From Mustelus asterias (lineage: Eukaryota): a DNA stretch of 64,000 nucleotides. A program made the translations under genes and the position numbers. Shown in pieces: positions 10,931 to 62,978 of this stretch. Numbering within the stretch: position 1 is the first letter of the stretch; every line of letters begins with the position of its first letter. The stretch covers positions 496,001 through 560,000 of the forward strand of contig NW_027590140.1 of NCBI RefSeq assembly GCF_964213995.1. The letters run 5' to 3'. A model generated the notes under the pieces. The model did no database searches. It saw only the letters and a list, made by a program, of their open reading frames with translations, and was not told the DNA's origin.

Positions 10931-10976
10931 ATGAGGTCGGCGATTTCTCTCAGTTTCTTGCTGACTTTCTTATCCG
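10931..10976 (+). CDS. IGHV: IgH V leader exon
   Basis: MRSAISLSFLLTFLS, phase-1 donor GTGAGT at 10977. Confidence 0.95.
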
Positions 10977-11107
10977 GTGAGTAGTTTTATTTTTATTGTG
11001 CAAGTCTGACTGCTACTGTCTCAGTGTTAGTCTATCTCTGGAATATTGCAGAATCAGCAATCATTACACCAGGATTAATCCTCGGGGTTTTTGATCTATT
11101 TTTACAG

Positions 11108-11415
11108 GTGTCCAGACGCAGGTTGTGTTGACTCAGCCAGAGGCAGAGACCGGGCTTCCCGGAGGCTCCCTGAAACTGACCTGTAAAACCAGCGGCTTCG
11201 ATCTTAGCAGCGACTGGATGGGCTGGATCCGGCAGGTTCCCGGACAGGGGCTGGAGTGGCTGACTCTCTACAAGGATTCATCTAACACCACCCACTACGC
11301 CCCAGGGATTCAGAATCGATTTACTCCGTCCAAAGACCTTTCAAACAGTATCTCCGCTTTGGCCATGACGAACCTTAAAATCGAAGACACCGCCATCTAT
11401 TACTGTGCAAGATGG
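11108..11415 (+). CDS. IGHV: IgM-type VH exon, open frame
   Basis: Acceptor tttacag; [53 protein letters not shown] with both Cys and the Trp. Confidence 0.97.
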
Positions 11416-11454
11416 CACAGCGAGAGGAACCAGGGCTGGACCCGGACAAGAACA
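11416..11454 (+). other. VH 23-RSS
   Basis: CACAGCG + 23 bp + ACAAGAACA. Confidence 0.95.
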
Positions 11455-11797
11455 GCTCGAGAGGGAATTCAGCAACTTAACTCATAACCTGAAGGTAAAT
11501 ATCTGTTTTAAATGTGATATAACCGACAGTGGTCAGAACCAAACCATAATCGTGTTAAAAAAGTAACAAAGAAAGCATTTAACAGTAAAATTTAACAAAC
11601 TCACAGATATAACAGGGTGAGATTTTCACTGACTTTATATTTATTGTAGTTTCAGCAATTACAGCGCTGGATATATTAATCGTTTTAATATTTCTGATAG
11701 ATTGTGTTATATAAACAGTTGCCTACATTTTAAATTAGAGCAGAACTAATGGTCCATTTGAAGTGAATATTGAGCGGCATTACTGAAGAGTGAGTGC

Positions 11798-11878
11798 AGT
11801 TTTTGTGCGGGTGTATGTCACTGTGATACTATGGGGGGGTCACAATGCTTAGCAGAGCGACATCCTCATACAAATACC
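11798..11878 (+). other. IGHD: DH1 segment with 12-RSS (5') and 22-RSS (3')
   Basis: AGTTTTTGT-12-CACTGTG, coding 11826-11840 atactatgggggggt, CACAATG-22-ACAAATACC. Confidence 0.93.
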
Positions 11879-12188
11879 TCAGAGAAGAACTTTGCTTAAA
11901 TTTGTGATCAATGCCACTGCCGAATGCCAAACAAAATGGGGGTTGAACAAAATAATAGGTAGAAGCAGCATTGTTTTTTTTAAAGATATAAAATACTTCA
12001 AATTTATTGTTATTAATTTACATGCTGAGTGTGCACAGAGAATGTAAAAGTTTCTAATCCCCTTTACCAATATCATGACCAGTAAAAATTGAAATATCTC
12101 ACTGACTCACTCTTAAACGAGATGGAAACAGGCTTTTGAAATAGCAGTGGAATTAACCATCTGCATGATACAGTTAACAGTCTGCCGC

Positions 12189-12256
12189 AGTATTTGTCAT
12201 GCTGTGTCTCACTGTGATAACTGGGTGGCACAGCAGTTACTGTCAATACAATAACC
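12189..12256 (+). other. IGHD: DH2 segment with 12-RSS on both sides
   Basis: AGTATTTGT-12-CACTGTG, coding 12217-12228 ataactgggtgg, CACAGCA-12-ACAATAACC. Confidence 0.93.
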
Positions 12257-12580: not shown

Positions 12581-12667
12581 GGTTATTGTACGACACAGTC
12601 CAGGGAATGTGGCACTGTGACGACTTCGCCTCCTGGGGACAAGGTACCATGGTGACGGTGACTGCAG
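12581..12667 (+). CDS. IGHJ: JH segment with 23-RSS (coding 12620-12667)
   Basis: GGTTATTGT-23-CACTGTG, then DFASWGQGTMVTVTA and donor GTAAG. Confidence 0.96.
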
Positions 12668-23913: not shown

Positions 23914-24213
23914 CGACACCGTCTCCGCCCACTCTCTACAGCCTCGTCTCTTCCTGTCAGCAACACAACTCCGCTGGCTCCATCACCTACGGCTGTTTGG
24001 CGATGGACTATTCTCCAGATGTCTCCAAACTGACCTGGAAGAAAAATGGGCAGCTGATCGCCACTGGATTTAAGACTTATCCATCAGTGAGAAACACGAA
24101 GGGAACCTATACCCTGAGCAGCCAGTTAACCATCACCCAGTCAGAGGGAGAGTGCAGCAAAATCGACTGTGAGGTTCGACACAGCGACTCCGTCAAGAGC
24201 ATTGAAATGCAAT
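23914..24213 (+). CDS. IGHM: IgM constant exon CH1
   Basis: Acceptor ttcccag; [42 protein letters not shown]; donor GTAAGT. Confidence 0.95.
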
Positions 24214-24359
24214 GTAAGTGTTGTGGAACTTGGGCAAGACAGGAACTCTGTGATTGAACTGTATAAGGCTTTAGTTATAACTGATCTGTAGCATTCTGAA
24301 AAAAAATGAATTATTCAAAATCCAGGTAAGTGTCTACTGACTGAAAAGTTGTTCAGAAC

Positions 24360-25100
24360 CAAAGAACAACAGGACTGTTACTGTGCAGAATGAGGCCATT
24401 GAGCCCATCATGTCTGTGCTGGCCAAAAGGGAGAACAAATAAACTAGCCAGACATTTGGAGCCCATTTTCCAGCCCTTGCGCCGTAGCCGTGCAGGTTAA
24501 AGCACCTGAGATGCAGACGTAATGACCTTTAAAATGACCATGCTTCCTGGTAATTGAGCCCTCGACTTGGGGAATGAATTATTTCTGCCTACGTCCCTTC
24601 TAATTTTGTGAACCACAATTATGTCACGCCTCAGCCTCCTCTTTTTCTAAGGAGAAAAACCCCTGCCTATCCAATCTCGCCTCATGGCGGGAATTTTCAG
24701 TCCCTGGCACCATTCTTGTCAGCGTCATCTCTCTCTAGAGCCATTACGTCATTCCTGCAACGTGTTGACCAGAACTGAACAGCAAACTCCAAACGTAGCC
24801 TACCTAGCGTTTTATACAGCTCCATCATTGCATCACTGTTTTTGCATTCAATATCTCACATAACAGAGGAACTAATCCGATATGCTTTCTTGATCAACTT
24901 TTCCAGCTGCCCTACCATCTACAAGGACCTGTGGACATGCACTCCATGGTCTTGCATTTCCTCAATCCCTCGAAATCTTCCATTTTATCGACTATTCCCT
25001 TGCTTTGTTTGCCCTCCCAAATTCATTGCGTGGCACTTTTGACGGTTGAATTCCATTCGCTATTTCCCTACCAATTCAACCAAACCATGGATATAATTCC
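24360..25100 (-). mobile_element. Old degraded CR1 fragment in CH1-CH2 intron
   Basis: Remnants of CR1 3' ORF and tail sequence. Confidence 0.6.
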
Positions 25101-25193
25101 CAAATTGGCAGCTCCGGTGCTAAAATAAAAGCATTAATTTTAATTGTTGTCAGTTGAACCTTCAAGTAACGTCTAAACGTGTGTTTGTTGAAG

Positions 25194-25499
25194 GCGACAT
25201 CCCCCCAACCGTTATCCTCACCGTGAGTTCCAGTGAAGAAATCACAAGCAGGAAATTTGCAACCATCGTCTGTTCAATCATCGATTTCCAGCCAAAGTCA
25301 GTGACGGTGGAGTGGCTGAAGAATGGGCAGCCCATGGATTCAGGAATTGCCACCTCTCCTGCCTGTGAAGTGAACGGAAACTTCTCGGCGAGCAGTCGGC
25401 TGACAGTCTCCGCTGGGGAATGGTCCAGCAAAACGGTCTATACCTGTCAGGTCACTCATCAAGGACTCACTCAGAGTCAGAACATCACCGGATCTCTGG
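25194..25499 (+). CDS. IGHM: IgM constant exon CH2
   Basis: [34 protein letters not shown]; phase-1 splice sites. Confidence 0.95.
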
Positions 25500-26391
25500 G
25501 TAAGGGATGCAAACCGAGGGAAAACAAATCATTCCGCTGTTAATCGGAATTAGAGATTTATTGAAGTTCGTGCGAAGCATAGAGCTGTCATGTAGTTTGC
25601 TGCAGTCGGATAGCGCCTCATTCAGAATTTCATCACATCAGCAATTATTTTTATTCTGTCATGAGATGTTCTCCATGGCCCATCCCTGACAGCACTTAAG
25701 AGTCGACGACGTTGCTGTGGATCTGGAGTCACATGCATGCCAGAGCAAGATAAAGACAGCAGATTTACACTTTAAAAGGGCATTCGTGAACCATTTACAG
25801 CAATGGCTTCATAATGATCGTTAGACTTTTAAATATCGTTTTTTAATAAAATCAAATTTGACCATTTGTGGTGGTGAGATTCGAATCTATAACCCCAGAC
25901 TTTTGCCCTAGGTTACAAACCCATTGATAACACCACCATGCCACTGCCTCTCCTTGAAACAATGCGCCCTTCTATTTTGAAGTAATATAGTGACCGAGGC
26001 GGACTTGATGTCAGCTTCTCCTGACACAGCTGGTAAAATTTGGAGAAACAGTAGGTGTCGGACTGTTTCACAGGTCACAGCGTAGGGGTAAAATGTTGGA
26101 AAGTGCATCCACCCTACTTATAAACCAACGGCCATTAATTTTTCCTGAGTTCAGGATGGTCTATTTGTGTGGGAATGCTGCAATGCTGATTCATCAGAAT
26201 GATCCCGCTGCTACAATACTTTAATAAAGAGAATAATTTCACAGAGCAACCTAGTTTTCCATTCACCATAGAAGTTGAAAGGCGATAGTTAGAGTTTGAT
26301 AACTCGAAGGCGACTTCGTCTCCTTTAGGCTGAATACTGCTGTCCTGCTTCTGAAGGAGAACTTGAGTTGGTTTTCATTTTTCATTCACAG

Positions 26392-26700
26392 GTCCTTCCC
26401 ACTGCCCGGATTCCACAGTGACAATACAACCACCACCAATAGAACAGGTCTTACTCGAGGCGACTGTGACCTTAACCTGTATCATTTTCAATTCTCCTTC
26501 CGGAGTCAACGTGTCCTGGATCCGAGACAGGAATTATTTGAAATCAGAGATTGCAGAAAAGCATGAAGAGGATCCTGACAGCATGGTCAGCAACTTAAAC
26601 ATCTCGACACAAGCCTGGCTGAGTGGGGCTGTGTTTGACTGCGTGGTGAGCCATCAGGATCTGCCGACTCCTTTAAGAAAATCCATCCACAAGGAAAGAG
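26392..26700 (+). CDS. IGHM: IgM constant exon CH3
   Basis: [45 protein letters not shown]; donor GTGAG at 26701. Confidence 0.95.
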
Positions 26701-31620: not shown

Positions 31621-31808
31621 TATATTACTGAGAGAGATTAATTTAATAATATATGCATTGACAATTTTATTAAGCGGTTAAGTTAATAACACATAGGCTT
31701 TGAAAAGTATATCAGAGAACAAAATAATACCTTAAGAAGGGAAAATGAATAACCAAAATAATATCCATGACGAGAAAAAAAATCTGAAAGTATTCCCTCT
31801 CCCCGTAG

Positions 31809-46419: not shown

Positions 46420-46485
46420 GTTTCTGGTACTTATTACGTCCGCCGTACAGACGCAAGTTTCCTGTTTCAATCCTGGGCAGAAACG
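46420..46485 (+). pseudogene. Degenerate tRNA-Val pseudogene
   Basis: gtttct...ttattacgtccgcc...ctgggcagaaac, with a D-arm deletion. Confidence 0.5.
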
Positions 46486-47514: not shown

Positions 47515-47586
47515 TTCCCTGACCGGGAATCGAACCCGGGCCGCGGCGGTGAAAGCGCCAAATCCTAACCACGAGACCACCAGGGA
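47515..47586 (-). tRNA. tRNA-Glu(TTC), nearly intact
   Basis: TCCCTGGTGGTCTCGTGGTTAGGATTTGGCGCTTTCACCGCCGCGGCCCGGGTTCGATTCCCGGTCAGGGAA; conserved A14 changed to C. Confidence 0.8.
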
Positions 47587-48608
47587 AGATGCAAGCGAAC
47601 AGTTTAATCTGACCGATACATTTCAGCGTTTTTCAAATACTCGAGAAAGGTTTGGGGGGAAAAAAAACCTCATGTTTCGATCGAACACGAATGACTGCTT
47701 CAGTCAACAGCAAATTACTGCAGATTCTGGAACTTAAAAGAAAAACTTAAAATGCTCGGAAATCTCAACAGGCATGACGGCATCTCTGGAGAGAGAATAG
47801 AGCTAACATTTCAAATCTGTATGGTCAGTCATCAAAGCTGAAGACAGGAAAAGATGGCGAGATTTATACTTTAAGTGTGGGAGATGCGGGGGGTGAGGGT
47901 GGGAGCCGTTGGTAAGAGTTGACAAAGTTGTGATAGAAAAAAAACAAACGGAATGTAAATTGTCGGCGGGAAAAGCAAAATACTGCGGATGCTGAAATCT
48001 GGAACAAAAACAGAAAATACTGGAACATCTCAGCATCAATGGAGAGAGAAAAAAGCCAACGTTTCGAGTCTGGATGGCGCTTCGCCAGAGGTCTGTGGAT
48101 CCTCAGTTAATGAGGATATTGAAGTTCCAGATGGAGATATTTTTGGAACCTAAGGGAATGAAGGGCCATCATGATAGGGTTGGAAATTGGTGTTGAGTCC
48201 TGGGATTCGTCATAATCTCCTTCAATTGTGGAGGAGACTCCATGGGACATGTGAGCCTATCCCACTCCATTAATTCCATCCCCTGCAGCACCATATCTGA
48301 CAGCGATCACTTCCGCCAGAACCGTTGGTGAGTGTTCTGAGGCATTGAATCCGAGGCAATAGCATTTGTGGGGGAAAGTGATCAAATGCCACAAATTTCA
48401 GGTGTTCAGTTGATCTGTTTTAAACGTCATGAATACTTTTTCTCGAACATGTTATTACGAAACTTTACTACAGTAGGAAGTATCATTATTCATTTTGACA
48501 GGAGGAACACGCAGAGGCAATGTAATATCAATTGCTGTGGGCAAAAGATGGGCTTCTGGAGCCACTCTAGTTGCTCTCCAGCAAACCGGATCTTCTTGCC
48601 ATCTCCGT

Positions 48609-48640
48609 GTTTCTATAGTGCGGTGGTTATCACATGAGCC
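48609..48640 (+). pseudogene. tRNA-Val 5' fragment
   Basis: gtttctatagtgcggtggttatcacatgagcc. Confidence 0.5.
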
Positions 48641-48925
48641 AGGTTAATTCTGTAAATATCTGGTCAGAATGATGGGAAGCATACATTACAGGAATTGTTA
48701 TTGTGTGACACCAGCTGCTTCGTTTTTTTTCAACAGAGGAGTTAAAGAGCAGCTGAAAGATGAAAAACGCTGATGTTGCAGGCACCTGGCACCAGAAGCT
48801 CAGCAATGTGCATTGTAATAGCAGTTAAACTGGCTGACAAATTGCCCTCTTGATTAGTACTTTGTGAGAAATTTAAAAGTAACGCCCTTCAGCAAATCAA
48901 ACATCTGCATTTGGAAATTAAAGCA

Positions 48926-48997
48926 AGGTTCCGTCGAGATTTGAACTCGGATTACTGCATTCAGAGTCCAGAATGCTCACCATTACACCACGGAACC
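48926..48997 (-). tRNA. tRNA-Gln(CTG), possibly a pseudogene
   Basis: GGTTCCGTGGTGTAATGGTGAGCATTCTGGACTCTGAATGCAGTAATCCGAGTTCAAATCTCGACGGAACCT; anticodon-stem mismatch. Confidence 0.75.
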
Positions 48998-49411
48998 CAA
49001 CACATAGCAACCGTTTGAAAATCCTCGCTCAATACTTGCGCCAATTTGAACAGCAGGGAGAAATATCAGTCTCATTGCACAATCCCGTCAATTACCCACA
49101 CCAATTCATATTTACATTGCCCTTGCTGTTCCTCCTTAAAAAAGTCAGAAGGCTATCTTCAACTACATTAAATTTCACTGTAGCTCACCACATTCAAAGA
49201 GCAATGTTATCATCGAACTGATATAAACCTTACTGCGGTAAATCTACTGAACAACATCAGCTTATCACAGCTCTGCTTTCATCACACTGGAAGCTCATGT
49301 GAAAATATAAACAATTTCAAATCTTAAGAGACTGTAAGGAGTCTATGACTGTGGACAATTGGCACTGTGCACATTTCTGTAATCAGTCTCTGGGAGAATC
49401 AGGCAGATGGA

Positions 49412-49480
49412 ATGTTGGTGGTTTCGTGGTAAGGATTCGGCACTTTCAGGGTCGCAGGCTGCCTTCGATATATTAAGATT
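49412..49480 (+). pseudogene. Degenerate tRNA-Glu remnant
   Basis: ggtggtttcgtggtaaggattcggcactttca...ttcgat. Confidence 0.45.
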
Positions 49481-50143
49481 TAATGATTTTTTAAAGAAAC
49501 AAACCAGCAATACGTCCTGGTCCAAAGCAGCACTGCCAGAATCGGTGGTGTGAGATTTGCACTTTTGCTTCGTTTTGGAAATGTCACATGTGCAACAGGT
49601 CAAGAACAAACACAGAGAGTGAAAGACAGTGACATGATGCAAAACGCTGCCGATAGAGTTACAAGGTAAGATCTGGGTGTTAATGGGTCAGATTTAACCA
49701 TTTGCATTGACAGAAATATCACTCATTTCTGGATAACGTTCTCGGGCTAAATGGCAAGAAAACGTCTCCATGAATGGAACACTAAACTCTTTGACTTCGA
49801 CTGATTGCAAGCAGTTTTCATTCAGAAATCCGTAACTGTGAGATTAACAAAGCGGAATGGAGAAAGTCTAAGTTTGAGCGGTGAAATGGAGGAATGGAGA
49901 GCTGGAGTTCGCCCAGAAAAGCAGCAAAGTTTTCAAATAACGGGAACAAATGTTGCCCTTGGCCTTATTCCTTGTGTCAGTGAATCCATCCTGCCTGAGT
50001 CACAATCACAGACTTTCTATATTCCGACATTGAATTATTCCCGCCTTAAATGCCGCAAACAACTCAATAGTTCAATGAATGTTTCATGATAAACGTGAAT
50101 AATTCTGAAATTTGAATCATTTTGAAATAAAGCCATTTTGAAA

Positions 50144-50216
50144 TGTTTCTGCCTGGTTTCAAAACGTGGACTTTCCGCGTGCAAGGCAAGCGTAATAACC
50201 ACTACAGTACAGAAAC
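50144..50216 (-). pseudogene. tRNA-Val-derived pseudogene (anticodon reads TGC)
   Basis: GTTTCTGTACTGTAGTGGTTATTACG...GAAACCAGGCAGAAACA with a broken T arm. Confidence 0.7.
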
Positions 50217-50697
50217 GTGCGCATTTGAAGCAGTTGCGATTTACTGGTTGAGCAACTAATCTCGTCCGACAAGCCCGTCAGTTGCTCACTTTACAGAAAA
50301 GAGAAAATGCTGGAAAATCACATTGGGTCTGGCAGCATCCGTCGGAGAGAAAAGGGCTGACGTTTCGGGTCCAGATGACTCTTTGTCAAAGTTTTGTGTG
50401 ACACATTTGGTTTCAGATTCCAGCATCCGCTGTAATTTGCTTTTATCCAGTTGCTCACTTTACATTCTCGCTGCTGGTCCCTCGAATCAAAATGAATGAT
50501 GATACATACCACTGTATTCAATTTTAGTAATCACATGTTTGACCAAAGCTGATCATAACGTTTATAGTAGTTTAAGTGAAAATCGGACAGTGGGAGAATT
50601 TGATCCCTCTCCTTCATAAACATGTTTATCCTAAATTTAGTGTCTGAGACTTCCCATCAACGACACCAGCAGAAGTCATTGCTGTGAGAGCTGGTAT

Positions 50698-51956
50698 NNN
50701 NNNNNNNNNNNNNNNNNNNNNNNNNNNNNNNNNNNNNNNNNNNNNNNNNNNNNNNNNNNNNNNNNNNNNNNNNNNNNNNNNNNNNNNNNNNNNNNNNNNN
50801 NNNNNNNNNNNNNNNNNNNNNNNNNNNNNNNNNNNNNNNNNCAGAGAGACACACATACGCACNNNNNNNNNNNNNNNNNNNNNNNNNNNNNNNNNNNNNN
50901 NNNNNNNNNNNNNNNNNNNNNNNNNNNNNNNNNNNNNNNNNNNNNNNNNNNNNNNNNNNNNNNNNNNNNNNNNNNNNNNNNNNNNNNNNNNNNNNNNNNN
51001 NNNNNNNNNNNNNNNNNNNGAGAGAGACACACACACGCACAGAGAGAGACACACACACACGCACAGAGAGAGACACACACACACGCACAGAGAGAGAGAC
51101 ACACACACATACACACACAGAGAGAACCACAGAGAGACAGAGAGAGAGAGCGACACACACGCACAGAGAGAGAGAGAGACCGACGAACAGANNNNNNNNN
51201 NNNNNNNNNNNNNNNNNNNNNNNNNNNNNNNNNNNNNNNNNNNNNNNNNNNNNNNNNNNNNNNNNNNNNNNNNNNNNNNNNNNNNNNNNNNNNNNNNNNN
51301 NNNNNNNNNNNNNNNNNNNNNNNNNNNNNNNNNNNNNNNNNNNNNNNNNNNNNNNNNNNNNNNNNNNNNNNNNNNNNNNNNNNNNNNNNNNNNNNNNNNN
51401 NNNNNNNNNNNNNNNNNNNNNNNNNNNNNNNNNNNNNNNNNNNNNNNNNNNNNNNNNNNNNNNNNNNNNNNNNNNNNNNNNNNNNNNNNNNNNNNNNNNN
51501 NNNNNNNNNNNNNNNNNNNNNNNNNGAGAGAGAGAGAGAGCGACACACACACACACACAGACACACACGCACACAGACAGAGAGAGAGAGACACACGCAC
51601 AGAGAGACACACAAACGCATAGAGAGAGTAACACAGACGCACAGAGAGAGCGANNNNNNNNNNNNNNNNNNNNNNNNNNNNNNNNNNNNNNNNNNNNNNN
51701 NNNNNNNNNNNNNNNNNNNNNNNNNNNNNNNNNNNNNNNNNNNNNNNNNNNNNNNNNNNNNNNNNNNNNNNNNNNNNNNNNNNNNNNNNNNGAGACACAT
51801 ACGCACAGAGAGAGAGAGAGAGAGAGAGAGACGTACACAGAGAGAGACACACACACACACGCACAGAGCGAGAGAGAGACAGAAGCACAGAGAGAGAGCG
51901 AGAAAGACACACACACAGAGAGAGACACACACACACGCAAAGAGAGAGACACACAA
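50698..51956. repeat. (GA)n/(CA)n microsatellite with four N gaps
   Basis: Direct inspection. Confidence 0.95.
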
Positions 51957-53081
51957 TGGAGTTGGATTAGATCACATGTCCCATTGAGTCTCCTCCCACT
52001 TTCAATCAAACCCCAGGTCAACAACTGCCTCATTTCAGGAATCAATTCAATTAAATTTGGTACCACCCAGACAGGGAGAGAATAGAAGGAACAAAATCAA
52101 AAGAGGGGAATGGATAGTCGGACTGAGAGAGGGAGGGGACTGAGGCAATCTACAGAGAGAGAAAAGAAAGAGCCAGAGTGGGGGTAGACGCTGAACGGAA
52201 CAGATGCCCTTCACTGTTCCATGTGATTTCAAGAAACAAAAACTTGAAGACATTGGAAAGAGAAAATGCTCTGTCCCTGAAAAATATTCTGGTAATGGTG
52301 CTGAAGAATTGATCTTCAGAATTTGCCATAGCCTTAGCTAAGCTGTTCCTAAACTACAACACTGGCATCAACCGCCAATGCGACAATTTGTCCAAGATTG
52401 TCCCGCTAACAAAAATCAGGTCAAATCCAACACCTCCAATTACCACCAATCTATTCTTGATCATCAGTAATGTGATGGAAGTAGCAATAAACGATGGTAT
52501 AAGGAGGCATTCCAATGCAAACTGGAGGAACATTGCCCTATCTCCCGATTCGGCGCTTAGTGCAAACCAGACTTAACATTGAGTTCAACAACTTGTGAGC
52601 GCCTCCTCTCTTCCATCTTCACCCCATTTCCATTTATTTTGTTTTATTTCATTTTATCTTATTTAATTATTTTTATTATTTTATATCTTCTTTTATATAT
52701 ATACTTATTGTTTAATTTCCATGTTTTGCATTTTTTATTTAAAATCTCACTTTCCATTTTGTTGACCCCTCTCCCTCCACCCCACTCGGGCCGTCTCTTA
52801 CATTTCCTTTTTCCTGCCATTTACACATTCTGATCTCTTAATGGGCAGCCTTCTTAGCCATGATCACAACCAATTACATTCCCTTTGTTTGTTTGTTTTT
52901 TATATGTGACACCACTGTCACCCATACCACAACCATATCCCTCGCCATTTCAGGATAAACCTCGTCCAAACTTATTTGTCTTCAGCTCTGACGAAGGGTC
53001 ATCCAGACTTTGAGCATTCGCTCTATTCTCTCTTCACAGGTGCTTTCAGACCTGTTGAGATTTTCCAGCGTTTTCTGTTCT

Positions 53082-53388
53082 GCGGCACGGTAGCGCAGTG
53101 GTTAGCACTGCTGCTTCACAGCTCCAGGGTGCCGGGTTCGATTCCCGGCTCGGGTCACTGTCTGTGTGGAGTTTGCACGTTCTTCTCGTGTCTGCGTGGG
53201 TTTCCTCCCAAAGATGTGCGGGTTAGGTTGATTGGCCAGGTTAAAAATTGCCCCTTAGAATCCTAAAATGCGTCGGTTAGAGGGATTAGCGGGTAAATAT
53301 GTGGGGGTAGGGCCTGGGTGGGATTGTGGTCGGTGCAGACTCGATGGGCCGAATGACCTCCTTCTGCACTGTAGGGTTTCTATGATTC
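53082..53388 (+). mobile_element. HE1/V-SINE inserted in a Penelope-like repeat
   Basis: Near-identical to the copy at 6591, with an internal deletion. Confidence 0.85.
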
Positions 53389-53533
53389 TTGTTCGCATTC
53401 CAGCAGTAAATTTGTATATTTGAAGAGGCACTTGTCAGACAGACTTGTCCCTGATATACAAAAAAAATGCTGAAATAGAAACAAAGCGCCAAATTATCAT
53501 GGGTAGGTTAGATTAAAATCCTTGCAGGCAATC

Positions 53534-53599
53534 TCCCTGATGTTGTAGTGGTTAGGATTTGGTGCTTTTATCGCAGCGGTTCGATTCCGGCTCAGGGGA
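53534..53599 (+). pseudogene. tRNA-Glu pseudogene with deletion
   Basis: tccctgatgttgtagtggttaggatttggtgc...ggttcgattccggctcagggga. Confidence 0.65.
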
Positions 53600-54239
53600 T
53601 GAAGATTTATTGCCTTCTTGTAGCACATGGTTTAGGTGGAGATGGAATTACTTCCTGATCAAAAACATGAGTGATACTGGTGCCAGTTTCAACAGCAGAG
53701 AGAAAAATCTATCGAGTCGTCAATCAATAATCACCATTGATGAGAAATAGATTTCCGGCTGTTCCTGTTGTTAAAATGTTCTGTTCCATCGCAAAGAATA
53801 TCTGAAACAATATTGCCTCACTGACACGACACCAGGGAATTCCAGCTCAGGAAGTTTACTCTGGAGCCAGTGGGTTTTTGAGGTTGTCAATGGGTTCATT
53901 CCTCTTTTGTGTGTCAATGGCTGTGCTAATGATTCTTTACCTTCCTTCGTGATTCTCCGTGCGCCTATGTTTGAGTCGATTGGTTTGGGAATCTATCACT
54001 GCATTTACTTGCCTATGTGTTTATGCTGGTGTTGATTCTGTGTAGTATACGAGGCTTCCAGTGAACACAGAGGAGGAGTTATTTATGAATTACATGGTAA
54101 GCAACGCAAACTAATAGGTGTCAGAAATCTGCAGAATAATTCTGGATTTATAATGAGGGACGTTAGAATTGATGTCACTGGGCATATATCTATATGGTTA
54201 TATATCTTTATTCGTGTTTGTCTTTGCACGTGGCCGTGT

Positions 54240-54475
54240 GTGTATTTGTTCTGCCCATGTCTGCTGTGTTTCCTCGGGTGCTGTGCTTTCCTCCGACTGT
54301 CCAAAGATGTGCGGATTAGGTGGATTGGCCATGCTAAATTGACCCCGAGCGTCGGAGATTAGCAGGGTAAATTTGTGCGGTTACGGGAATAGGGCCTCGG
54401 TGGAATTGTAGCCGGTACAGACTCGCTGGGCCGAATGGCTTCCTTCTGTAGCGGTTCTATGATTCTCTGATCTCT
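54240..54475 (+). mobile_element. 5'-truncated HE1/V-SINE
   Basis: V-domain and CR1-like tail. Confidence 0.7.
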
Positions 54476-54533
54476 ATATGTGTCTTTGCAGTTGGCCTTG
54501 TGTGAACCTGCTTCCGATATGCGGCTGTGCTGT

Positions 54534-54566
54534 CCACGGGAGGGCGCTCTCTGATCACTTATAAAA
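54534..54566 (+). promoter_or_regulatory. CTCF-like motif plus TATA box of a TCR V promoter
   Basis: CCACGGGAGGGCGC (54534-54547) and TATAAAA (54560-54566). Confidence 0.45.
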
Positions 54567-54908
54567 GATCACGATCCTCTTCTCAAGGAAGCGTCTGTTT
54601 GAAGATGCAAAAATGGACGGAGAGAGGGAGTCACCTTCGACCTCCTCACATCCCCTTGACTGTTTTAACTCCTCCAATTGCAGGTCTGATGCAGACAGCG
54701 GTCACTCTCTCTTTTTCTGGTGTTCAGACGCGAAGCATGGGGTGAAACTCTGTCTGACTCCGATTGTTGTCCTGATTGCAGGTCTGTCATTTTGAACTTC
54801 TGCGTGAAATCCTCAATCACCATATTCATTCCCCATTTCCACCTCGAGGCGTTTATTCCGTTGTTGTTACTCCTTCTAACGCGCTGCGTTTCTGTTGCCG
54901 ATTTTCAG

Positions 54909-55257
54909 ACATGAGTAACGGAGACTCAGTATCCCAGTCAGAACCAGGAGTTGAAGCAGAAGAGGGTGAAGATTCAGCAATACCCTGCAGTTACTCGGTA
55001 CCGAGTTCAGCTGCACAACATTACCTGTTCTGGTATCGCCAGTATACACTCCGAACTCCTCAGTATCTGCTCAGAGCTGCTAGTTATGTATTTATCGAGA
55101 CGGCTCCTCGATTTGAACATTTCAGCGGGAATCTCAATCTGAAACAAAACACTCTTCACTTGTCAATGGACGATTTGAAGACGACAGACAGCGCCGTGTA
55201 TTACTGTGCACTGAGACCTGGAGTGAATGAGGTTCCCGCCGGCCTCATGCAAAAACT
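54909..55257 (+). pseudogene. TCR alpha/delta-type V, open reading frame but defective RSS; leader exon ends 54781
   Basis: DMSNGDSVSQ..IPCSYS..LFWYRQ..PQYLL..TDSAVYYCALRP; RSS TGGAGTG-23-GCAAAAACT; leader VKLCLTPIVVLIA lacks a proximal in-frame ATG (nearest is 54613). Confidence 0.85.
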
Positions 55258-55614
55258 GGCGCAGATCGAAAATCAATGGTTAATTGTCAGGAGAACACAT
55301 GGGATTAAAAATCAGAGAAAATGTGCCCACAGTACCTGACAATACAGCCCCATCTGAATGTTTTCGCTCACTGAGGTAAATGATTGTCACTGTTGGGAAA
55401 TTTGACATATATTTACTCATATTATACCAGATCAATTCCAATCGTTGCCCGATCCCATTCACACAAGTCTGCCGATCTTCCAGGTGAACAACGTCATCAA
55501 TCTATACTTTAAATGTTCCAGATCAGTTAACTGTCAGGCAGACCACACCTTTCAAAAGCGATCAAATATCCAAAGGCAGAATTAGAGTTGTCACATGTTG
55601 AAGTTGCTGGGTTC

Positions 55615-56394
55615 AAAATAATGACTGACTGAAATCAATGCTTCCCCAGTGGAACCGCATCTCAACGAATCGCAAAAGCTCAGTCTGCAACGAATCGCAA
55701 AAACTCAGTCTGCAGGTGCAGCAGGTGATCAAGAAGGCGAATGGAATGTTGGCCTTTATCGCGAGGGGTATAGAATATATAAGCAGGGAGGTCTTGCTGC
55801 AACTGTACAAGGCACTGGTGAGGCCGCAACTGGAGTATTGTGTGCAGTTTTGGTCCCCTTATTTGCGAAAGGATATATTGGCCTTGGAGGGAGTGCAGAG
55901 AAGGTTCACCAGGTTGATACCGGAGATGAGGGGTGTAGCTTATGAGGAGAGATTAAACAGATTGTGTCTGTACTCGTTGGAGTTTAGAAGGATGAGGGGT
56001 GATCTTATAGAGACATATAAGATAATGAAGGGGCTGGATAGGGTAGAGGTGGAGAGATTCTTTCCACTTAGAAGGGAAACCAGAACTAGAGGGCACAGCC
56101 TCAAAATAAGGGGGGCCGGTTCAGAACAGAGTTGAGGGGGAACTTCTTCTCTCAGAGGGTAGTGAATCTCTGGAATTCTCTGCCCATTGAAGTGGTGGAG
56201 GCTTCCTCGTTGAATATGTTTAAATCACGGGTAGATAGTTTTCTGATCGATAAGGGAATTAGGGAATATGGGGAGCAGGCGGGTAAGTGGAACTGATTCG
56301 CTTCAGATCAGCCATGATCTTGTTGAATGGCGGGGCAGGCTCGAAGGGCCAGATGGCCTACTCCTGCTCCTATTTCTTATGTTCTTATGTTCTT
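55615..56394 (+). mobile_element. CR1 LINE 3' fragment
   Basis: ORF 55638-56135 LYKALVRPQLEYCVQFWSP; cttatgtt tail. Confidence 0.88.
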
Positions 56395-56857
56395 CATGCG
56401 GAGTTGGGTGATTACTTTATCCCGGTGTACTTAGAACGGTATCTATTAATTATCCTCATACACTGGACACTAAATAACTGTGCATCAGACAGATTTCAAA
56501 TTATCTGTTTCATTTTTCACCTTGATTGAAAAGATTTGCCTCAAGAAATATACCGACATTGAGTTCGAAAGAAAGCGAGTTAAACCGAGAAAGAGACAGA
56601 ATGACTGAGAGCAAGAGGGTGAGAAAGACGCACACAGCCTGGGCTACAATTTGATTGGAGAAAGCCAACTGCCCTTCGTCGTCAGCAAACAGTGATTGGT
56701 CCAAAGCTAACGTCACCTCAGGGAGGTTAGCCAATCACAAAACTAAGAAACGCCCAACAATTGCAGTTGCCTCTGATCTGAGTTGACTCTGTGACATAAG
56801 ACTGGAAACAACAACATATTTTAAACAGTGTCGCTGTTTACTGTCCAATCAGGAACC

Positions 56858-57334
56858 ATGTGTTCCCTGTGTGCTTTACTGATAATAATGGTCATGCTGC
56901 CCGGTGAGTCTGAGCTCAAATCTCAAGTGTGTGCTTCATGGGTTATATTCACGCACAGATTTCTCACACGTTATATATGTTGTTACAGGAACTAATGGCC
57001 AAGATTCAGTTTTCCAGGAAGGAAATGCCCGAATTAACGGTCCAGGACGGAAATACAGTAATATTGAATTGCAATTACACAACAAGATACACTGGCGGGA
57101 CTCTCTTCTGGTACACTCAATATCCAGGGGAGCTCTGAGATATTTACTGAAGAAATACAGCACATGGCAGCGAGAAAAGTCTGCAGGTTTCCCTGACAGG
57201 TTCTCTGCTGATTTAGACCAAGGCAAGAAAGCATTTCCTTTAAATCACCGGTGTCCCTATCTCTGACTGTGTCGGTATCACTGTGCGCTGAACCTCACAC
57301 TGTTACAGAGGCACAGTCAGCCCGTACAAAAATC
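56858..57334 (+). pseudogene. TCR alpha/delta-type V pseudogene (leader 56858-56903, V exon 56989-57295, RSS 57296-57334)
   Basis: Leader MCSLCALLIIMVMLP; GTNGQDSVFQ / GNTVILNCNYT..LFWYTQYP / FPDRFSADL / YHCALN in shifting frames; CACACTG-23-ACAAAAATC. Confidence 0.9.
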
Positions 57335-57494
57335 AGCAAAGGCACTCTCACCTCCTATCATTGAATCAGGTCTGTGACCTGGATTGTGAACTCTTAATAT
57401 GAACAAAGCAACATTATAAGGAACAGTTGTGGCGAACGCTCTCTTTCTGTGGTGCTGAGCGTGTGTTAATTGATGAGAAATTCCTCTTCATATA

Positions 57495-57792
57495 AGTTTT
57501 CACAGTGCAGAAAGAGACCATTTGCACAAACCACAACCACATCCAGGCCCTATCCCCATATTTGCATGCATTTACCCCACCACCTGACAATAAGAGGCAA
57601 TTTATCATGGCCAATCCACCAAACCCGCACATCTTTGGACTGTGCGAGGAAACGGGAGCACCCGGAGTAAACCCATGAAGACATGGAAAATATGTGCAAA
57701 CTCCACACAGACAGTGACCCAAGCCGGGAATCAAACCCTTGCCCCTGGCGCTGTTTTGTATCAGTGCTAACTACTATGCCACGACGCCGCGC
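57495..57792 (-). mobile_element. HE1/V-SINE
   Basis: Reverse complement of the SINE body. Confidence 0.75.
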
Positions 57793-58185
57793 CATTTACA
57801 CACGACTCCCTCAATGGAAAACTCTGGGTTTGGTATCAAAGTTTTGACCAATATCCATCATTGTTCTATCTCAAAGATTAACTCCTTAAGAGCACCAACA
57901 TTCGTTTTAACGCACTCTCTGCGCCATGGAGAACGATAGTTATTCGGTCGTTTAATTTATTCGGGGCAGTTGATAGATGCATGGATATTCAGGGAAATAA
58001 GGGATATGAGATTGTGCAGGAATCTGGTTGTGAGCTAAATCAACAATGATCTTACGAAACGGCGGTAGCTGGCACCAATGAAGGATCAAATGGTCCATTC
58101 CAGCTCCGGTTCCCTATTCTCTGAAGATCTTCTGCCCAGTTCATTGTTCTGAAAAAAATATTTAAATGGTTCCTGCTCCTCTCTC

Positions 58186-58300
58186 TGACGTCATGGATTG
58201 GAGAACAAAGTCACTCCGAGCTGATTGGATTAAATATAGGACAATGGAGCTGTGAGCTGATTGGGTGTCTCCTGCTGGCTCTGTCAGGAATGAACCAATC
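58186..58300 (+). promoter_or_regulatory. V promoter: palindromic CRE plus several CCAAT boxes
   Basis: TGACGTCA at 58186-58193, followed by three ATTGG and one CCAAT. Confidence 0.55.
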
Positions 58301-58391
58301 GCCGTGAGGACGGATAATACACAAAATCTTCTGAACTCTGAACTAAAACAATTGAACTTTAACTCACTGAGTTCAGATCCAACACCAGCTC

Positions 58392-58717
58392 TGTGAACTT
58401 TGTGGCTTTGGTTCTTTACTTATTCTTACAGCTGCAGGTCTCTCAACTGGTAAGTTCCCAAGTTGCACAGTTCGCGGACGATACTGACACAGCGATCTTC
58501 CCTTTAACATTGTTTCCTTTATTTGCAATTATTTAATTACCTTGATCACATTGTTTCTAGTAAAGTGAAAATGACAACGCTAAAGCTCTTATTTCTATTT
58601 TTGCAGGTATCAGTGGTGCAGTTTCTATCTCTCATGAGTCGGTTGTTGCAACAAAGGTTGAAGCAGGATCGCTGACGATTAATTAAAATTTAATCAAGTG
58701 ATATGATAGTCCTTTGG
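58392..58717 (+). pseudogene. Truncated V pseudogene (leader 58392-58449 without ATG; FR1-CDR1 58607-58717)
   Basis: ELCGFGSLLILTAAGLST|gtaag...ttgcag|GISGAVSISHESVVATKVEAGSLTIN*, then shifted SSDMIVLW. Confidence 0.65.
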
Positions 58718-58760
58718 GTTTATAAATTCTTTTTGCTGTTTTTCACTCTGATCTGCACTG

Positions 58761-59080
58761 CGGTGACTGTTGAACATGAGTTGCTGCAGCTCCCTCAGTG
58801 GATGGAAGTTAGTGAAGAGGGAATCGTAACCATGAATTGTACCAGCGCCAGGGTGATGAACATGGTGCATTGGTACAGACAGTTCCCAAATCAACCACCT
58901 CAACATCTGGTGATGGTCATAAGAGAAACCAATCAACACGGGAGGATGACTGCCACAGTCGGGGGAGACAACAAACTCAGTGTCCTGACTGTGAGAGAGA
59001 CCCAGCTAACAGACACTGTCGCCTATCTCTGCGCCGTGAGGCACAGTGTAACAAATGTATCGAGAGCTCGTACAGAAACC
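58761..59080 (+). CDS. TCR alpha-like V exon, open, with good 23-RSS but no AG acceptor
   Basis: AVTVEHELLQ..VTMNCTS..VHWYRQFPNQPPQHL..GRMTAT..TDTVAYLCAVR; CACAGTG-23-ACAGAAACC; acceptor position reads CTG. Confidence 0.85.
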
Positions 59081-59904
59081 GACACCGAGTGGCAACTGAG
59101 CTCTACTGTGTTTGGGGGATCGGCGTTGCAAGTGGCGTGGTAATAATAAGGGCTGGAGGATTGTGCAAGAAAGCAAGTGCATCTAACAGAGAAAGAACTA
59201 AAGCGGATCAGAAATGAAGAACTTTGGAAACATAAACACAGAGAAATAAAAAGCAAACAGAAAAAGGAACAGCGGAAAAATGCAGTAATCATGACGAGCA
59301 AAGGACAAAACATTCGTGAACTATGGAAAAATAAATGGAATAATGTCTAAAATGACCAGCGTCAGACAGAGAGGTTAAAAAATAGGTCAAGTTATAAATG
59401 AAAATAATCCCCAAAAAAGTTGCATTTAAATGCTTTATCAAAATTCGTACTTTGTTTAGAGTTAGACAGTTAAATTTTCTGATACAGTTTCCTGATAACT
59501 GGCTGTTGGATATTGCCGCATTGAAAAATTAACAATTTTTCCAACGTTCTGATGCTGCAAAATTATTTAAAATTTCTAGATGCTGGAATGTCCTTCCCTG
59601 CAACTTGGGAAATGTGCTCATTTTCTGCAAACTTTGTCTAAACCAGTAACATACTGTGACCATATCAACTGATGCCCAAAAACGGAGAGTGGAGTTGAAA
59701 GGAGGATTATACATTAATTCAGGTTTATCACAGTTACATCATTGCAGTGTTAATGTAAACCTACTTGTGAAACTCATAAATAAACTTGCACTTAAACTTT
59801 TAATTAATACAGACGTGGATATATCATGAAAAGATAAAATGGGTGTGAGACCATCACACATTGATTTGTGAAATTAGTTTTGAGTACAGATGTAATTTTT
59901 TATT

Positions 59905-60097
59905 ATTATTTATCAGTCACAAGTAAGGCTTATATTAGCACTGCAGTGAAGTTACTGTGAAATTCCCTTCATCGCGATATTCCGGCGCCTGCTTGGGTCA
60001 ATGCACCTATCCAGCACATCTTTCAGAATGCAGGAGGAAACCGAGCAAATGAAGAAACCGACGCAGACACGGGAAGAATGTGTAAACTCCACACAGT
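59905..60097 (-). mobile_element. SINE fragment
   Basis: Reverse complement of the 6159-type SINE, cut off at the CR1. Confidence 0.65.
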
Positions 60098-62403
60098 CCT
60101 CTTGTGAAGAGGAAGAAGGAGACTTCTGCAAACATGAGACGTGGTGCCTCATTTAGGGCGCTTGAGAGTGACAAGTTAGCCAGGAAGGACCTAAAGAGAG
60201 AGTTAAGAAGAGCCAGGAGGGGACATGAGAAGTCTTTGGCAGGTAGGGTCAAGGAAAACCCTAAAGCTTGCTATCGGTATGTCAGGAATAAAAGAATGAC
60301 TGGGGTGAGATTAGGGCTAGTCAAGGACAGTAGTGGGACCTTGTGCGTGGAGCCTGAAGAGGTAGGAGAGGCGCTAAATGAATATTTTTCGACAGTATTC
60401 ACGCAGGAAAAAGACAATGTTGTCGAGGAGAATACTGAGATACAGGCTATTGGACTAGACGGGATTGACATTAATAAGGAGGAGGTGTTAGCAGTTCTGG
60501 AAAGTGTGAAAATAGATAAGTCCCCTGGGCCGGATGGGATTTATCTCAGGATTCTCTGGGAGGCTAGGGAGGAGATTGCAGAGCCTTTGGCTTTGATCTT
60601 TCATAGAATCATAGAAACCCTACAGTGCAGAAGGAGGCCATTCGGCCCATCGAGTCTGCACCGACCACAATCCCACCCAGGCCCGTCCCCCACATATTTT
60701 ACCCGCTAATCCCTCTAACCTACACATCCCAGGACTCTAAGGGGCAATTTTTTAACCTGGCCAATCAACCTAACCCGCACATCTTTGGACTGTGGGAGGA
60801 AACCGGAGCACCCGGAGGAAACCCACGCAGACACGAGGAGAATGTGCAAACTCCACACAGACAGTGACCCGAGCTGGGAATCGAACCCGGGACCCTGGAG
60901 CTGTGAAGCAGCAGTGCTAACCACTGTGCTACCGTGCCGGTCATCATTTTCTACAGGAATAGTGCCAGAAGACTGGAGGATAGCAAATGTTGTCCCGTTG
61001 TTCAAGAAGGGAAGTAGAGACAACCCTGGTAATTATAGACCAGTGAGCCTTACTTCTGTTGTGGGCAAAGTTTTGGAAAGGATTATAAGAGATAGGATTT
61101 ATAATCATCTAGAGAGGAATAATTTGAATAGCGATAGTCAGCACGGTTTTGTGAAGGGTAGGTCGTGCCTCACAAACGTTATTGAGTTCTTTGAGAAGGT
61201 GACCAAAGAGGTGGATGAGGGTAAAGCACTTGATGTGGTGTCTATGGATTTCAGTAAAGCGTTTGGTAAGGTACCCCACGGTAAGCTATTGCGGAAGATA
61301 TGGAGGCATGGGATTGAGAGTGATTTAGCGGTTTGGACCAGGAATTGGCTAGCTGTAAGAAGACAGAGGGTGGTGGTTCATGGGAAATGTTCATCATGGA
61401 GTTGAGTTACTAGCGGTGTACCGCAAGGATCTGTTTTGGGGCTACTGCTGTTTGTCATTTTTATAAATGACCTGGATGAGGGCGTAGAAGGATGGGTTAG
61501 TACATTTGTGGATGACAATAAAGTCGGTGGAGTTGTGGACAGTGCGAAAGTTTGTTGCAGGTTACAGAGGGACATAGATAAGCTGCAGTGCTGGGCTGAG
61601 AGGTGGCAAATGGAGTTCAATGCGGAAAAGTGTGCGGTGATTCACTTTGGAAGGAGTAACATGATTACAGAGTACGTCGCTAATGGTAAGATACTTGGTA
61701 GTATGGATGAACAGAGAGATCTCGGTGTCCATCTGCGCAGATCCCTGAAAGTTGTCATCCATGTTGATAGGGTTGTTAAGAAGGCGTACGGAGTGTTAGC
61801 TTTTATTGGTAGAGGGATTGAGTTTCAGAGCCAGGAGGTCATGTTGCAGCTGTACAAAACTTTGGTGCGGCCGCATTGGAGCATTGTGTCCAGTTCTGGT
61901 CACCGCATTATAGGAATGATGTGGATGCATTGGAAAGGATGCAGAGGAGATTTACTAGGATGTTGCCTGGTATGGTGGGAAGGTCTTATGAGGAAAGGCT
62001 GAGGGACTTGAGGTTTTTTTGGTAGAGAGAAGAAGGTTAAGTGGTGACTTAATAGAGGCATACAAGGTGATCAGAGGATTAGGTAGGGTGGATAGTGAGA
62101 CCATTTTTCCTCGGATGGTGATAGCTAGCACGAGGCGACATATCTTTAAATTGAGGGGTGACAGATATAGAGCAGATGTCAGAGGTAGGTTCTTCACTCA
62201 GAGAGTGGTAAGGGCTTGGAATGCCCTGCCTGCAGCAGTAATGGACTCGCCAACATTAAGGCATTTAAATGGTCATTGGATAAACATATGGATGATGTTG
62301 GAATGGTGTAGGGAGATGAGCTTTAGATTGGTTTCACTGGTCGGCACATCATCGAGGGCCGAAGGGCCTGCACTGCGCTGTAATGTTCTATGTTCTATGT
62401 TCC
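60097..62403 (+). mobile_element. CR1 LINE (disrupted RT) interrupted by a SINE
   Basis: ORFs 60104-60600 and 60940-62400 with KSPGPDG, YRPVSLT, DFSKAF, FFTQRVV; ttctatg tail. Confidence 0.9.
60603..60938 (-). mobile_element. Young HE1/V-SINE nested in CR1
   Basis: Near-exact reverse complement of the copy at 6591. Confidence 0.88.
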
Positions 62404-62604
62404 ATGTTCAGACAGTGACCCAAGCCGGGAATCGAAACAGCGTCCCTGGCACTGTGAGGCAGCTGTGCCAACATGCCACTCACGTGTTAGTTAGGTTAGT
62501 TAGAAACAACTAACATAATTCCTCAGTTGTTGTTCCTCCTCTTGTTCGGTGTTGTGTTCTGTGTTGATATTTTATTAATGGCTCTGTGACCACCCTCAGG
62601 AAGC

Positions 62605-62618
62605 GCGCCCTCCGCTGA
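62605..62618 (-). promoter_or_regulatory. CTCF-type motif downstream of the inverted V RSS
   Basis: Minus strand TCAGCGGAGGGCGC, in a block homologous to 34987-35025. Confidence 0.5.
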
Positions 62619-62643
62619 TCAATAACTGGAACTTCCAGTCTGC

Positions 62644-62978
62644 AGTTATTGTCCGGAATCCTCTCGATCTCTGCAGCAGTGTGGGCTGCACGGCACATAA
62701 GTACACTGCGCTGTCGGAGAAGAGCATCCCAGCGATAGTTAAAGAAACTATTTTGTGTTTCTTGCTCACACCAGCAGGAAATCTCTATAGAAAACTTGAA
62801 AAGTACGTTTCCGTGCTGTATAACGTCAACAGATACATTGAGCCTTCCCCGGCAGACTGGATGTACCATAACAGAATTCGACCAGCTGTCGAGTAACTGC
62901 AATCCAGTCTTATTGTGTGTCCTTGCTGAACCCTAAATTCAGAAAGATCCTGGGACAGTTTATCTTTGCCATTGTTTC
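62644..62978 (-). pseudogene. Inverted TCR alpha/delta-type V pseudogene (absent as such from the ORF track)
   Basis: GNNGKDKLSQDLSEFRVQQGHTIRLDCSYSTAGRILLWYIQ..FL*RFP..SDSAVYLCAVQP; stop at 62785-62787, in-phase acceptor AG>AA, RSS CACACTG-24-ACAATAACT. Confidence 0.88.

Follow-up and report, generated by a model that had tools for sequence, protein, structure and literature searches.

The locus

The window, a stretch of 64,000 nucleotides from the shark Mustelus asterias (assembly GCF_964213995.1, contig NW_027590140.1, positions 496,001 to 560,000), carries on its forward strand a complete, open-frame IgM minicluster (10931–32087) followed by TCR-type V genes (Table 1). The cluster is intact, as originally predicted, with all exons, splice sites and RSSs present and the frames open. 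The splice sites are all AG/GT, the secreted and membrane splice forms both translate without an internal stop, and Pfam places a V-set domain on the VH and C1-set domains on CH1 to CH4. With one V, two D and one J (RSS spacers 23 / 12–22 / 12–12 / 23), four C1 exons, a secretory tail and two TM exons, the gene matches in all segments, spacers and exons the V-D1-D2-J-Cμ1-4-sec-TM plan of the shark IgM minicluster as laid out in the sections of PMC6795676 drawn on here, and in B cells it would presumably rearrange inside its own cluster (V-D1-D2-J) like any other shark IgM. It differs from the three paralogues checked by five changes in the secretory tail, two of them to proline, and its TM2 reads AGD where two paralogues checked read IK. 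The V-D-D-J stretch has its nearest other copy on contig C118 (95%) and the constant part its nearest relatives on C127 and C1457 (99%); since the closest relatives differ, the gene has a mosaic history and did not arise by a single clean duplication. A search for read sets with the V-D-D-J stretch listed no RNA set, which speaks neither for nor against its expression.

Table 1. Features of the window (positions counted from its first letter)
Feature	Position	Strand	Remarks
IgM leader exon	10931–10976	+	ATG, GT donor, in frame with VH
VH exon	11108–11415, 23-RSS to 11454	+	open frame, V-set
D1 with 12-RSS and 22-RSS	11798–11878 (D1 11826–11840)	+	
D2 with two 12-RSS	12189–12256 (D2 12217–12228)	+	
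23-RSS and JH	12581–12667 (JH 12620–12667)	+	WGQG
CH1	23914–24213	+	C1-set, AG/GT
CH2	25194–25499	+	C1-set, AG/GT
CH3	26392–26700	+	C1-set, AG/GT
CH4 with secretory tail	27177–27568	+	internal donor after 27506; AATAAA at 27605
TM1	31809–31933	+	splice sites, frame
TM2	32076–32087	+	AATAAA at 32144
TCRα/δ-type V pseudogene	34638–34958 (V 34638–34951)	+	frameshift, stop; heptamer kept, nonamer lost
Duplicated 5′ fragment of V 34638	38239–38476	+	99% to 34536–34773
Four N runs in CA/GA microsatellite	50698–51791	.	no sign of misjoin
TCRα/δ-type V	54909–55225 (V to 55218)	+	exon open; heptamer without CAC; leader without in-frame ATG
TCRα/δ-type V pseudogene	56859–57334 (V to 57295)	+	good leader, 23-RSS; exon frameshifted
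Sixth V relic	58393–58680	+	leader without ATG and first codons of V exon
Usable-looking TCRα/δ V	58703–59080	+	leader and V in one exon; 23-RSS at 59042
TCRα/δ-type V pseudogene	62644–62978 (V 62978–62684)	−	in-frame stop; 24-base spacer

Five TCR-type V loci lie in the window, four of them on the IgM strand. The first begins 2.55 kb past TM2, and both the spacing originally given (~2.6 kb) and the four further loci with their orientations are borne out. What had gone unmentioned is that four of the five are broken; only the V at 58703–59041 combines an open frame with a leader and a good 23-RSS. Related copies occur on other contigs: the pseudogene at 34638 matches (82% in DNA) a V with an open frame that precedes the Jα array of C546, the C436 paralogue of the V at 54909 keeps the heptamer CACAGTG, and open copies of the V at 58703 (89–98%) occur on C124, C900, C436, C591 and C88. 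The V families of the window also precede the Jα of C546 and the Jδ of C436. A homologue search with the intact V (58703) returned a single match, without a name.

Contiguity and the surrounding contig

The junction between the IgM gene and the first V (31780–35000) recurs in seven full-length copies at 98–100%, which rules out a misjoin there. For the gaps at 50.7–51.8 kb, across which the original prediction had called for contiguity to be confirmed, the answer comes from C124, which is free of N at this place and aligns on both sides (46289–50697 at 96.3%, 51819–60602 at 99.1%), with 1104 bases between the flanks as against 1122 in the window; this collinearity rules out a misjoin at the N stretch as well. 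More distant copies reach further. A junction paralogue at 72% (C71:11.01–11.02 Mb) reaches Jδ–Cδ no more than 32 kb from CH4, and C436 holds four of the window V loci in the same order and orientation (79–90% DNA identity) and, beyond them, a NAR-TCR V followed by a Vδ germline-joined to Dδ, a Jδ and a Cδ. The contig of the window itself, C108 (1,408 kb), is separate from the 20-Mb scaffold C71, and its segment at 568–604 kb equals C71:12.74–12.78 Mb at 99.2% over 35 kb.

The original prediction took the window for an edge of the TCRα/δ locus, or for a detached V block, where a functional IgM gene could also supply its VH in cis to TCR D and J segments. A canonical TCRα/δ translocon would have D, J and C downstream of its V array, with the order 5′-trdc-(traj)n-trac-3′ (PMC10322711). 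We read 264 kb of C108 directly and covered the remainder through genome searches that scored the best candidates only; the former contains no J segment, and among the best candidates of the latter none on C108 is a Dδ, Jδ1, Jα pattern, Cδ or Cα. At the scale of the contig this speaks against the edge of a single locus, and it is an outcome that the original prediction had named, for the chromosome arm, as refuting it. It is thus unlikely that the window borders one canonical translocon with its VH as a routine cis donor to Dδ and Jδ, even though the 23-RSS of the VH fits the 12-RSS of Dδ, the V field continues past the window for 12 more V-like exons (up to C108:669 kb), and chimeric IgHV–TCRδ chains are reported in sharks (introduction of PMC12227049; excerpts of PMC5931798). 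The decay of most of the window V loci weighs against this reading too, as do the V genes and 105 IgM CH4 matches that occur along most of C71 and on dozens of contigs, a spread that leaves no single edge.

The detached V block does fit C108. A further reading makes the window an orphon that moved off the antigen-receptor chromosome and whose V genes could never be put to use, for which one may cite the want of any D, J or C found on 1.4 Mb and the many dead V genes. We regard such an orphon as very unlikely: every close paralogue belongs to C71 or to a contig of the same Ig/TCR content, and open V genes with good RSSs persist, namely that at 58703 and four of the 12 V-like exons downstream. 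C108 also carries a NAR-TCR cassette, which is inverted. Should C108 belong to the C71 chromosome, the intact V at 58703 and the window VH could reach TCR D and J segments only by long-range joining.

Fuller units elsewhere in the genome

Three paralogous units hold, on one strand and within 50–110 kb, an IgM gene, NAR-TCR, Vδ, (Dδ), Jδ and Cδ. Two are complete (C71:7.06–7.14 Mb and C123:510–621 kb), and the former has an intact IgM VH 56 kb upstream of a Dδ with the matching 12-RSS. On C96, one strand carries IgM, two of the window V families, NAR-TCR, Vδ-D, Jδ and Cδ. Repeated units with a double-V cassette and a constant gene of their own are a feature of the paralogues, but not of the window. 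In the complete units, a VH with its 23-RSS could join the 12-RSS of Dδ by simple deletion, removing Cμ, and such a deletion would offer a short cis route to the known IgHV–TCRδ chimeras. The predicted cis supply of VH to TCR D and J is thus anatomically open in paralogous units such as that at C71:7.06–7.14 Mb, but not locally in the copy on C108.

Genome-wide, an IgM gene lies 32–104 kb upstream on the same strand in five of 19 Cδ copies, and a same-strand NAR-TCR V lies 16–58 kb upstream in 15. As the other 14 Cδ have no same-strand IgM CH4 within 110 kb upstream among the matches listed, IgM appears to be a frequent rather than a fixed part of the unit. C71 alone holds 26 IgM CH4 matches, three Cδ and one Jα–Cα.

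The delta and alpha constant genes

The genome has 19 open Cδ exons (among 103 candidates scored), which carry the trd signature CLXXXFXP of PMC10322711 and each of which is accompanied by a TM exon; the single Cδ directly upstream of Jα described there is not the arrangement here. They form eight clades, 85% to 98.9% apart, two of which have four and five members, and three copies, 98% alike, share a scaffold, where they sit in N-free stretches and have different neighbours. Many of the 19 are probably allele pairs; the Cδ at C71:12.27 Mb and that on C850 are 100.0% alike, and some pairs fall at 99.8–100%. In X2/X3, one short-read sample, Cδ contigs reach a depth of 72–179 as against 19–20 for Cα, with several variant contigs, and the Cδ depth per assembled copy is about half that of Cα. 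These depths amount to roughly ten Cδ loci, contig depth not being the same as copy number. In run X4, where cover is low and Cα only partly covered, Cδ exceeds Cα only ~2-fold, and no ratio was taken from it.

If the many Cδ and IgM/V copies were mainly artefacts of assembly (uncollapsed haplotypes or false duplications), the true layout would be the published one, with one or two Cδ. The same families do recur on dozens of contigs of 0.2–2.4 Mb, of the size of unplaced ones, and the near-identical pairs and the low X4 ratio point the same way. Yet the eight clades, the three copies with different neighbours on one scaffold, and a Cδ depth of 4–9 times that of Cα, spread over several variant contigs in X2/X3, make this quite unlikely.

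Cα occurs in two divergent Jα–Cα arrays, on C71 and C546, with 84% DNA identity and different J arrays. Both Cα types occur in X2/X3, where 10 of 10 variant letters match C546. The degree of identity and the differing J arrays favour paralogues over very divergent alleles, although fish are known to have TCR constant genes with highly polymorphic alleles (cited in excerpts of PMC5931798). On C71, no Cδ was found in the 180 kb, free of N, before the Jα array; on C546, two Dδ-like segments and a gap of 200 N precede the Jα array.

Three side observations belong here. The first J-RSS pattern that we used matched mainly an array on C8 that is unrelated, with two matches of use, and a structure search with Cδ returned antibody C domains only, with the chain not named. 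A contig from X1, which carries another organism code and for which RNA is only a guess, has a match bounded by the limits of the Cδ exon; being 95% alike, it was set aside as the sequence of a relative and does not bear on this locus.

Interpretation

We consider it likely that the window, with its intact IgM gene and mostly broken TCRα/δ V genes, is a copy, now decayed, of an IgM/TCR-delta unit that was segmentally duplicated within the shark antigen-receptor complex. Loss of the delta module from the unit may have come first, with the decay of the V genes next to the IgM gene following. The original notion of a shared Ig/TCR region survives in that the linkage of IgM and V genes is real and belongs to such a region.

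A broader reading, which we hold only tentatively, is that in this shark lineage TCR-delta has left the translocon plan for some ten miniclusters, several fused to a functional IgM gene. One unit of 80–110 kb would then serve B cells as IgM and, by deletion of Cμ, γδ T cells as a VH–Dδ–Jδ–Cδ or NAR-TCR gene; TCRα would be divided between a pair of divergent Jα–Cα loci, of which one or both lie far from any Cδ; and the window would be a copy that kept IgM and lost delta. If these units are real and expressed, a T-cell receptor too can take on the clustered layout of shark antibody genes, and the entry of IgM V genes into TCR-delta ("trans-rearrangement") gains named cis substrates of 56–85 kb with distinguishable VH and Cδ. 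How, then, does a γδ T cell exclude ten loci?

Comparison with known systems

Linkage of the kind found in the window has already been published and is in itself unremarkable. IgM clusters with TCRαδ V exons between them have been described in white shark, catshark and stingray (text sections and Table S1 of PMC12227049), and the same interleaving of TCRαδ-type V exons with IgH clusters is seen here. In the elasmobranch antigen-receptor complex, AgRC (Flajnik et al., 2025; PMC12227049, in the sections drawn on), IgM miniclusters with TCRαδ-type and NAR-TCR V genes between them extend over megabases on the TCRα scaffold, as on C71 here, and on white shark chromosome 27 IgM lies within 40–90 kb of TCRa/dV genes (PMC12227049, Table S1). 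Less ordinary is delta in many small units among IgM clusters, against its published description: the same sections term TCRαδ a translocon, as section 25 of PMC6795676, in the part consulted, terms the TCR loci of cartilaginous fish. Table S1 of PMC12227049 has one delta-constant model in stingray and one IgWV–TCRD in catshark, with none so labelled in white shark or epaulette shark, whereas the present genome has 19 Cδ assembled, with a separate Jδ/Dδ for every copy that was read, and a pair of Jα–Cα arrays. Our literature search, run mostly outside the subscription journals, turned up no description of a shark with multiple Cδ genes, which is weak evidence of novelty.

IgHV–TCRδ chimeras and NAR-TCR have reportedly been found in the nurse shark, in work by Criscitiello (2006, 2010), Deiss (2019) and Ott (2021). 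The parts common to that system (as cited in the portions of PMC12227049, PMC5931798 and PMC6795676 drawn on) and to the present genome are an IgM VH, a NAR-TCR V with its supporting Vδ, and a lone VH-like V just upstream of Dδ; the present genome has several sets of them, with Cδ genes of their own. Extra or separated TRD/TRA loci are also found in newt, flounder, galliform birds and alligator, though these number two or so in the excerpts of PMC12698447, as against about ten Cδ loci here, interleaved with IgM. The tandem TCRμ clusters of marsupials work alike, with a double-V cassette, their own C, some germline-joined segments and some partial clusters, but they belong to another lineage and use another constant gene; the sections of PMC2275272 drawn on report no IgM gene in the TCRμ clusters and call the two systems convergent.

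IgM cluster and V genes of the window

Gene calls in the window, made by RSS scan and six-frame reading, place an IgM heavy-chain minicluster of the shark type on its + strand. As had been predicted, the cluster is complete: exons, RSSs and splice sites are all present, every junction has AG/GT sites, and each of the two splice forms gives an open frame. Pfam finds V-set and C1-set domains on the window V and C exons (9/9 proteins).

Features of the IgM minicluster (window positions)
Feature	Position	Strand	RSS or basis of call
IgM leader	10931-10976	+	RSS scan, six-frame reading
VH	11108-11415	+	23-RSS
D1 of IgM		+	RSS 12/22
D2 of IgM		+	RSS 12/12
JH	12620-12667	+	RSS 23
CH1-CH4 and secretory tail	23914-27568	+	six-frame reading
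IgM TM1	31809-31933	+	
IgM TM2	32076-32087	+	

The secretory tailpiece of IgM has a role in polymer formation. Here the tail (27507-27568) is unlike three paralogues at 5 of 20 residues, two changes being to proline, and TM2 reads AGD where paralogues have IK; going by these residues, polymer formation could be impaired. A stop-ridden VH relic lies 14 kb 5′ of the intact VH, at ~493 kb (+) on C108, the contig bearing the window (C108:496001-560000).

Of the V array predicted after IgM, five TCR-type V loci are present, but most are pseudogenes. The first starts 2.55 kb past TM2, in agreement with the ~2.6 kb predicted, and is frameshifted and without a nonamer. The V at 54.9 kb keeps an open frame but has lost both heptamer CAC and leader ATG, that at 57 kb is frameshifted, and that at 62.9 kb (-) carries a stop. 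Only 58703-59041, where leader and V share one exon, has an open frame together with a good 23-RSS. Between the V loci lie tRNA-Glu and tRNA-Gln genes (47514-47587 and 48925-48998, -) and further tRNA-like relics. A LINE-rich stretch at 34.5-39.5 kb contains a local duplication that holds a second copy of the 5′ part of the first V pseudogene, and a decayed DNA-transposon-like element, possibly of hAT type, lies at ~41.2-43.4 kb.

Could the linkage of IgM to these V genes be a misjoin? The TM1-to-first-V interval recurs in seven full-length copies (98-100%) on six contigs, among 40 candidates scored, and the N-free contig C124 aligns on either side of the window's N runs, the two alignments being almost as far apart as in the window. 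A misjoin is thus improbable.

No locus edge on C108

The original prediction also saw here an edge of the TCRα/δ locus, with the VH as a local cis donor to TCR D and J segments. Neither idea holds on C108 (1,408,000 bases). Genome searches place on it no Jα-type RSS (all 41 matches fall on C546 and on C71, a 20.4-Mb scaffold), no TCR TM exon (21/21 candidates scored) and no Dδ-Jδ1 (32/32 scored), and list no Cδ; in these searches the contig yields none of the TCR D, J or C sought. In the 264 kb read directly (456-720 kb) there are no J segments, and 3′ of the window stand 12 additional V-like exons on both strands, four of them open with an RSS. IgM CH4 has at least 105 matches at 64% or more among the best 150 of 506 candidates; 26 of them are on C71, spread across the scaffold, and relatives of the intact window V occupy the same contig set. 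With both so dispersed, there is no single locus edge, and C108 is a piece of a wide field in which IgM clusters are interleaved with TCR V genes. A 35-kb block shared with C71:12.74-12.78 Mb at 99.2% suggests that C108 may belong to the same chromosome.

Other elements of C108 include an IgM TM1 exon at 581.0 kb (-) with no C exons nearby. At 597.2-596.9 kb (L004) an open NAR-TCR V directly abuts a 12-RSS, as if germline-joined to D, and the same sequence occurs at C71:12.77 Mb. An open supporting Vδ lies 5 kb away; both are inverted relative to the window, and no delta D, J or C was found behind them.

Many TCR-delta constant genes

The C71 Cα TM exon, taken from behind the Jα array, retrieved as query one further Cα and, in 19 copies, a different TCR TM exon. 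Four of the 19 were read: in these a D with 12/23-RSS and one to three J accompany a C1 exon and the TM. By the signatures given in PMC10322711, the delta exon bears that of trd and both Cα that of tra; NCBI proteins labelled Mustelus asterias match the delta exon at 79-97%, which points to a smooth-hound or a near relative as the likely source. All 19 Cδ exons are open. Over 3.3 kb they form eight clades, two of which, with four and five members, exceed two alleles, and three C71 copies (7.14, 11.04 and 12.27 Mb) are 98% alike. If no locus is represented more than twice, there are at least 11 Cδ loci.

Contig depth, which is not copy number, was 72-179 for Cδ against 19-20 for Cα in one short-read sample (X2 and X3). 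Normalised by the assembled copies with shared words (6.9-14.8), Cδ depth was 8-14 per assembled copy, about half that of Cα, as expected for one allele per assembled copy and roughly ten loci. Another run of low cover (X4) counts against about ten loci, its Cδ contig depth, again not copy number, being only about twofold that over Cα.

The two Jα arrays, both of which have a separate Cα, lie at C71:18.37-18.43 Mb and C546:138-242 kb, with at least 34 and 77 J, respectively, in the parts read; the Cα share 71.5% amino acid and 84% DNA identity. The 180 kb upstream of the C71 array hold no V or Cδ; the closest Cδ listed lies 6.1 Mb from it, and V genes lie ~1 Mb downstream.

Units joining IgM to delta

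Among the matches listed on Cδ contigs (10 IgM and 17 NAR-TCR, qualifying or nearest), a same-strand NAR-TCR V lies 16-58 kb upstream of 15 of the 19 Cδ, and a same-strand IgM CH4 32-104 kb upstream of five. The N-free C71:7.06-7.14 Mb runs from IgM through NAR-TCR V and J, supporting Vδ, two lone VH-like V, Dδ and three Jδ to Cδ and TM; its IgM is intact (VH open, RSS complete, sites AG/GT), with 56 kb from VH to Dδ. Contig C123 keeps this order over 85 kb from VH to Dδ; its D2 3′ and JH signals were not detected in the RSS scan. C96 holds IgM, two window V families, NAR-TCR, a fused Vδ-D, and Jδ and Cδ; C71:11.0 Mb, an IgM with interrupted VH, then the window's post-TM2 V, then Jδ-Cδ; and C436, four window V loci in conserved order, then NAR-TCR and a delta module.

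Supporting Vδ is germline-joined to Dδ, whose 3′ 23-RSS is kept, at C436:213.4-213.8 kb and C96:1455.1-1455.4 kb, and by similarity on C119. Tandem 23-RSS at 61-base spacing follow supporting Vδ at C123:567.4-567.7 kb (four) and C71:7.091 Mb (two). On C8 (50.18-51.08 Mb), 12-RSS elements of identical sequence occur 19 times over 0.9 Mb, in either orientation, and are probably J segments of light-chain clusters.

We propose that a unit of IgM, TCR V, NAR-TCR and delta D-J-C spread over the antigen-receptor chromosome by unequal duplication, inversion and conversion, a turnover that the mosaic ancestry of the window IgM fits; the window copy would have retained a working IgM and lost its delta module while its V genes decay. 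In shark IgH clusters, as PMC6795676 describes, IgM rearranges V-D-D-J inside its own cluster. Going by RSS type, the 12/23 rule would also allow a γδ T cell to delete the DNA between Dδ and VH (or VH-D1) in a complete unit and so join the two; IgHV-TCRδ chains would then be explained with no inter-chromosomal joining. We put use of the fused units in both ways at slightly below an even chance. The window VH would need a long jump, probably of megabase scale, to reach a Dδ.

Comparison with the published arrangement

Two features depart from the canonical picture: TCR-delta modules number about ten, several of them immediately following an IgM cluster, and there is a pair of divergent Jα-Cα arrays. 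This layout was not found in the literature searched, a set outside which the main nurse-shark papers fall. The IgM/V linkage in the window is genuine. It is also an arrangement already known, since Flajnik et al. 2025 (PMC12227049) report TCRαδ linked to IgM, IgW and IgNAR in four elasmobranchs, and in its Table S1 white shark IgM genes alternate with TCRa/dV and NAR-TCR V. As in those elasmobranchs, where TCRαδ-type V exons are described between IgH clusters, the window belongs to an arrangement of IgM clusters with such exons between them.
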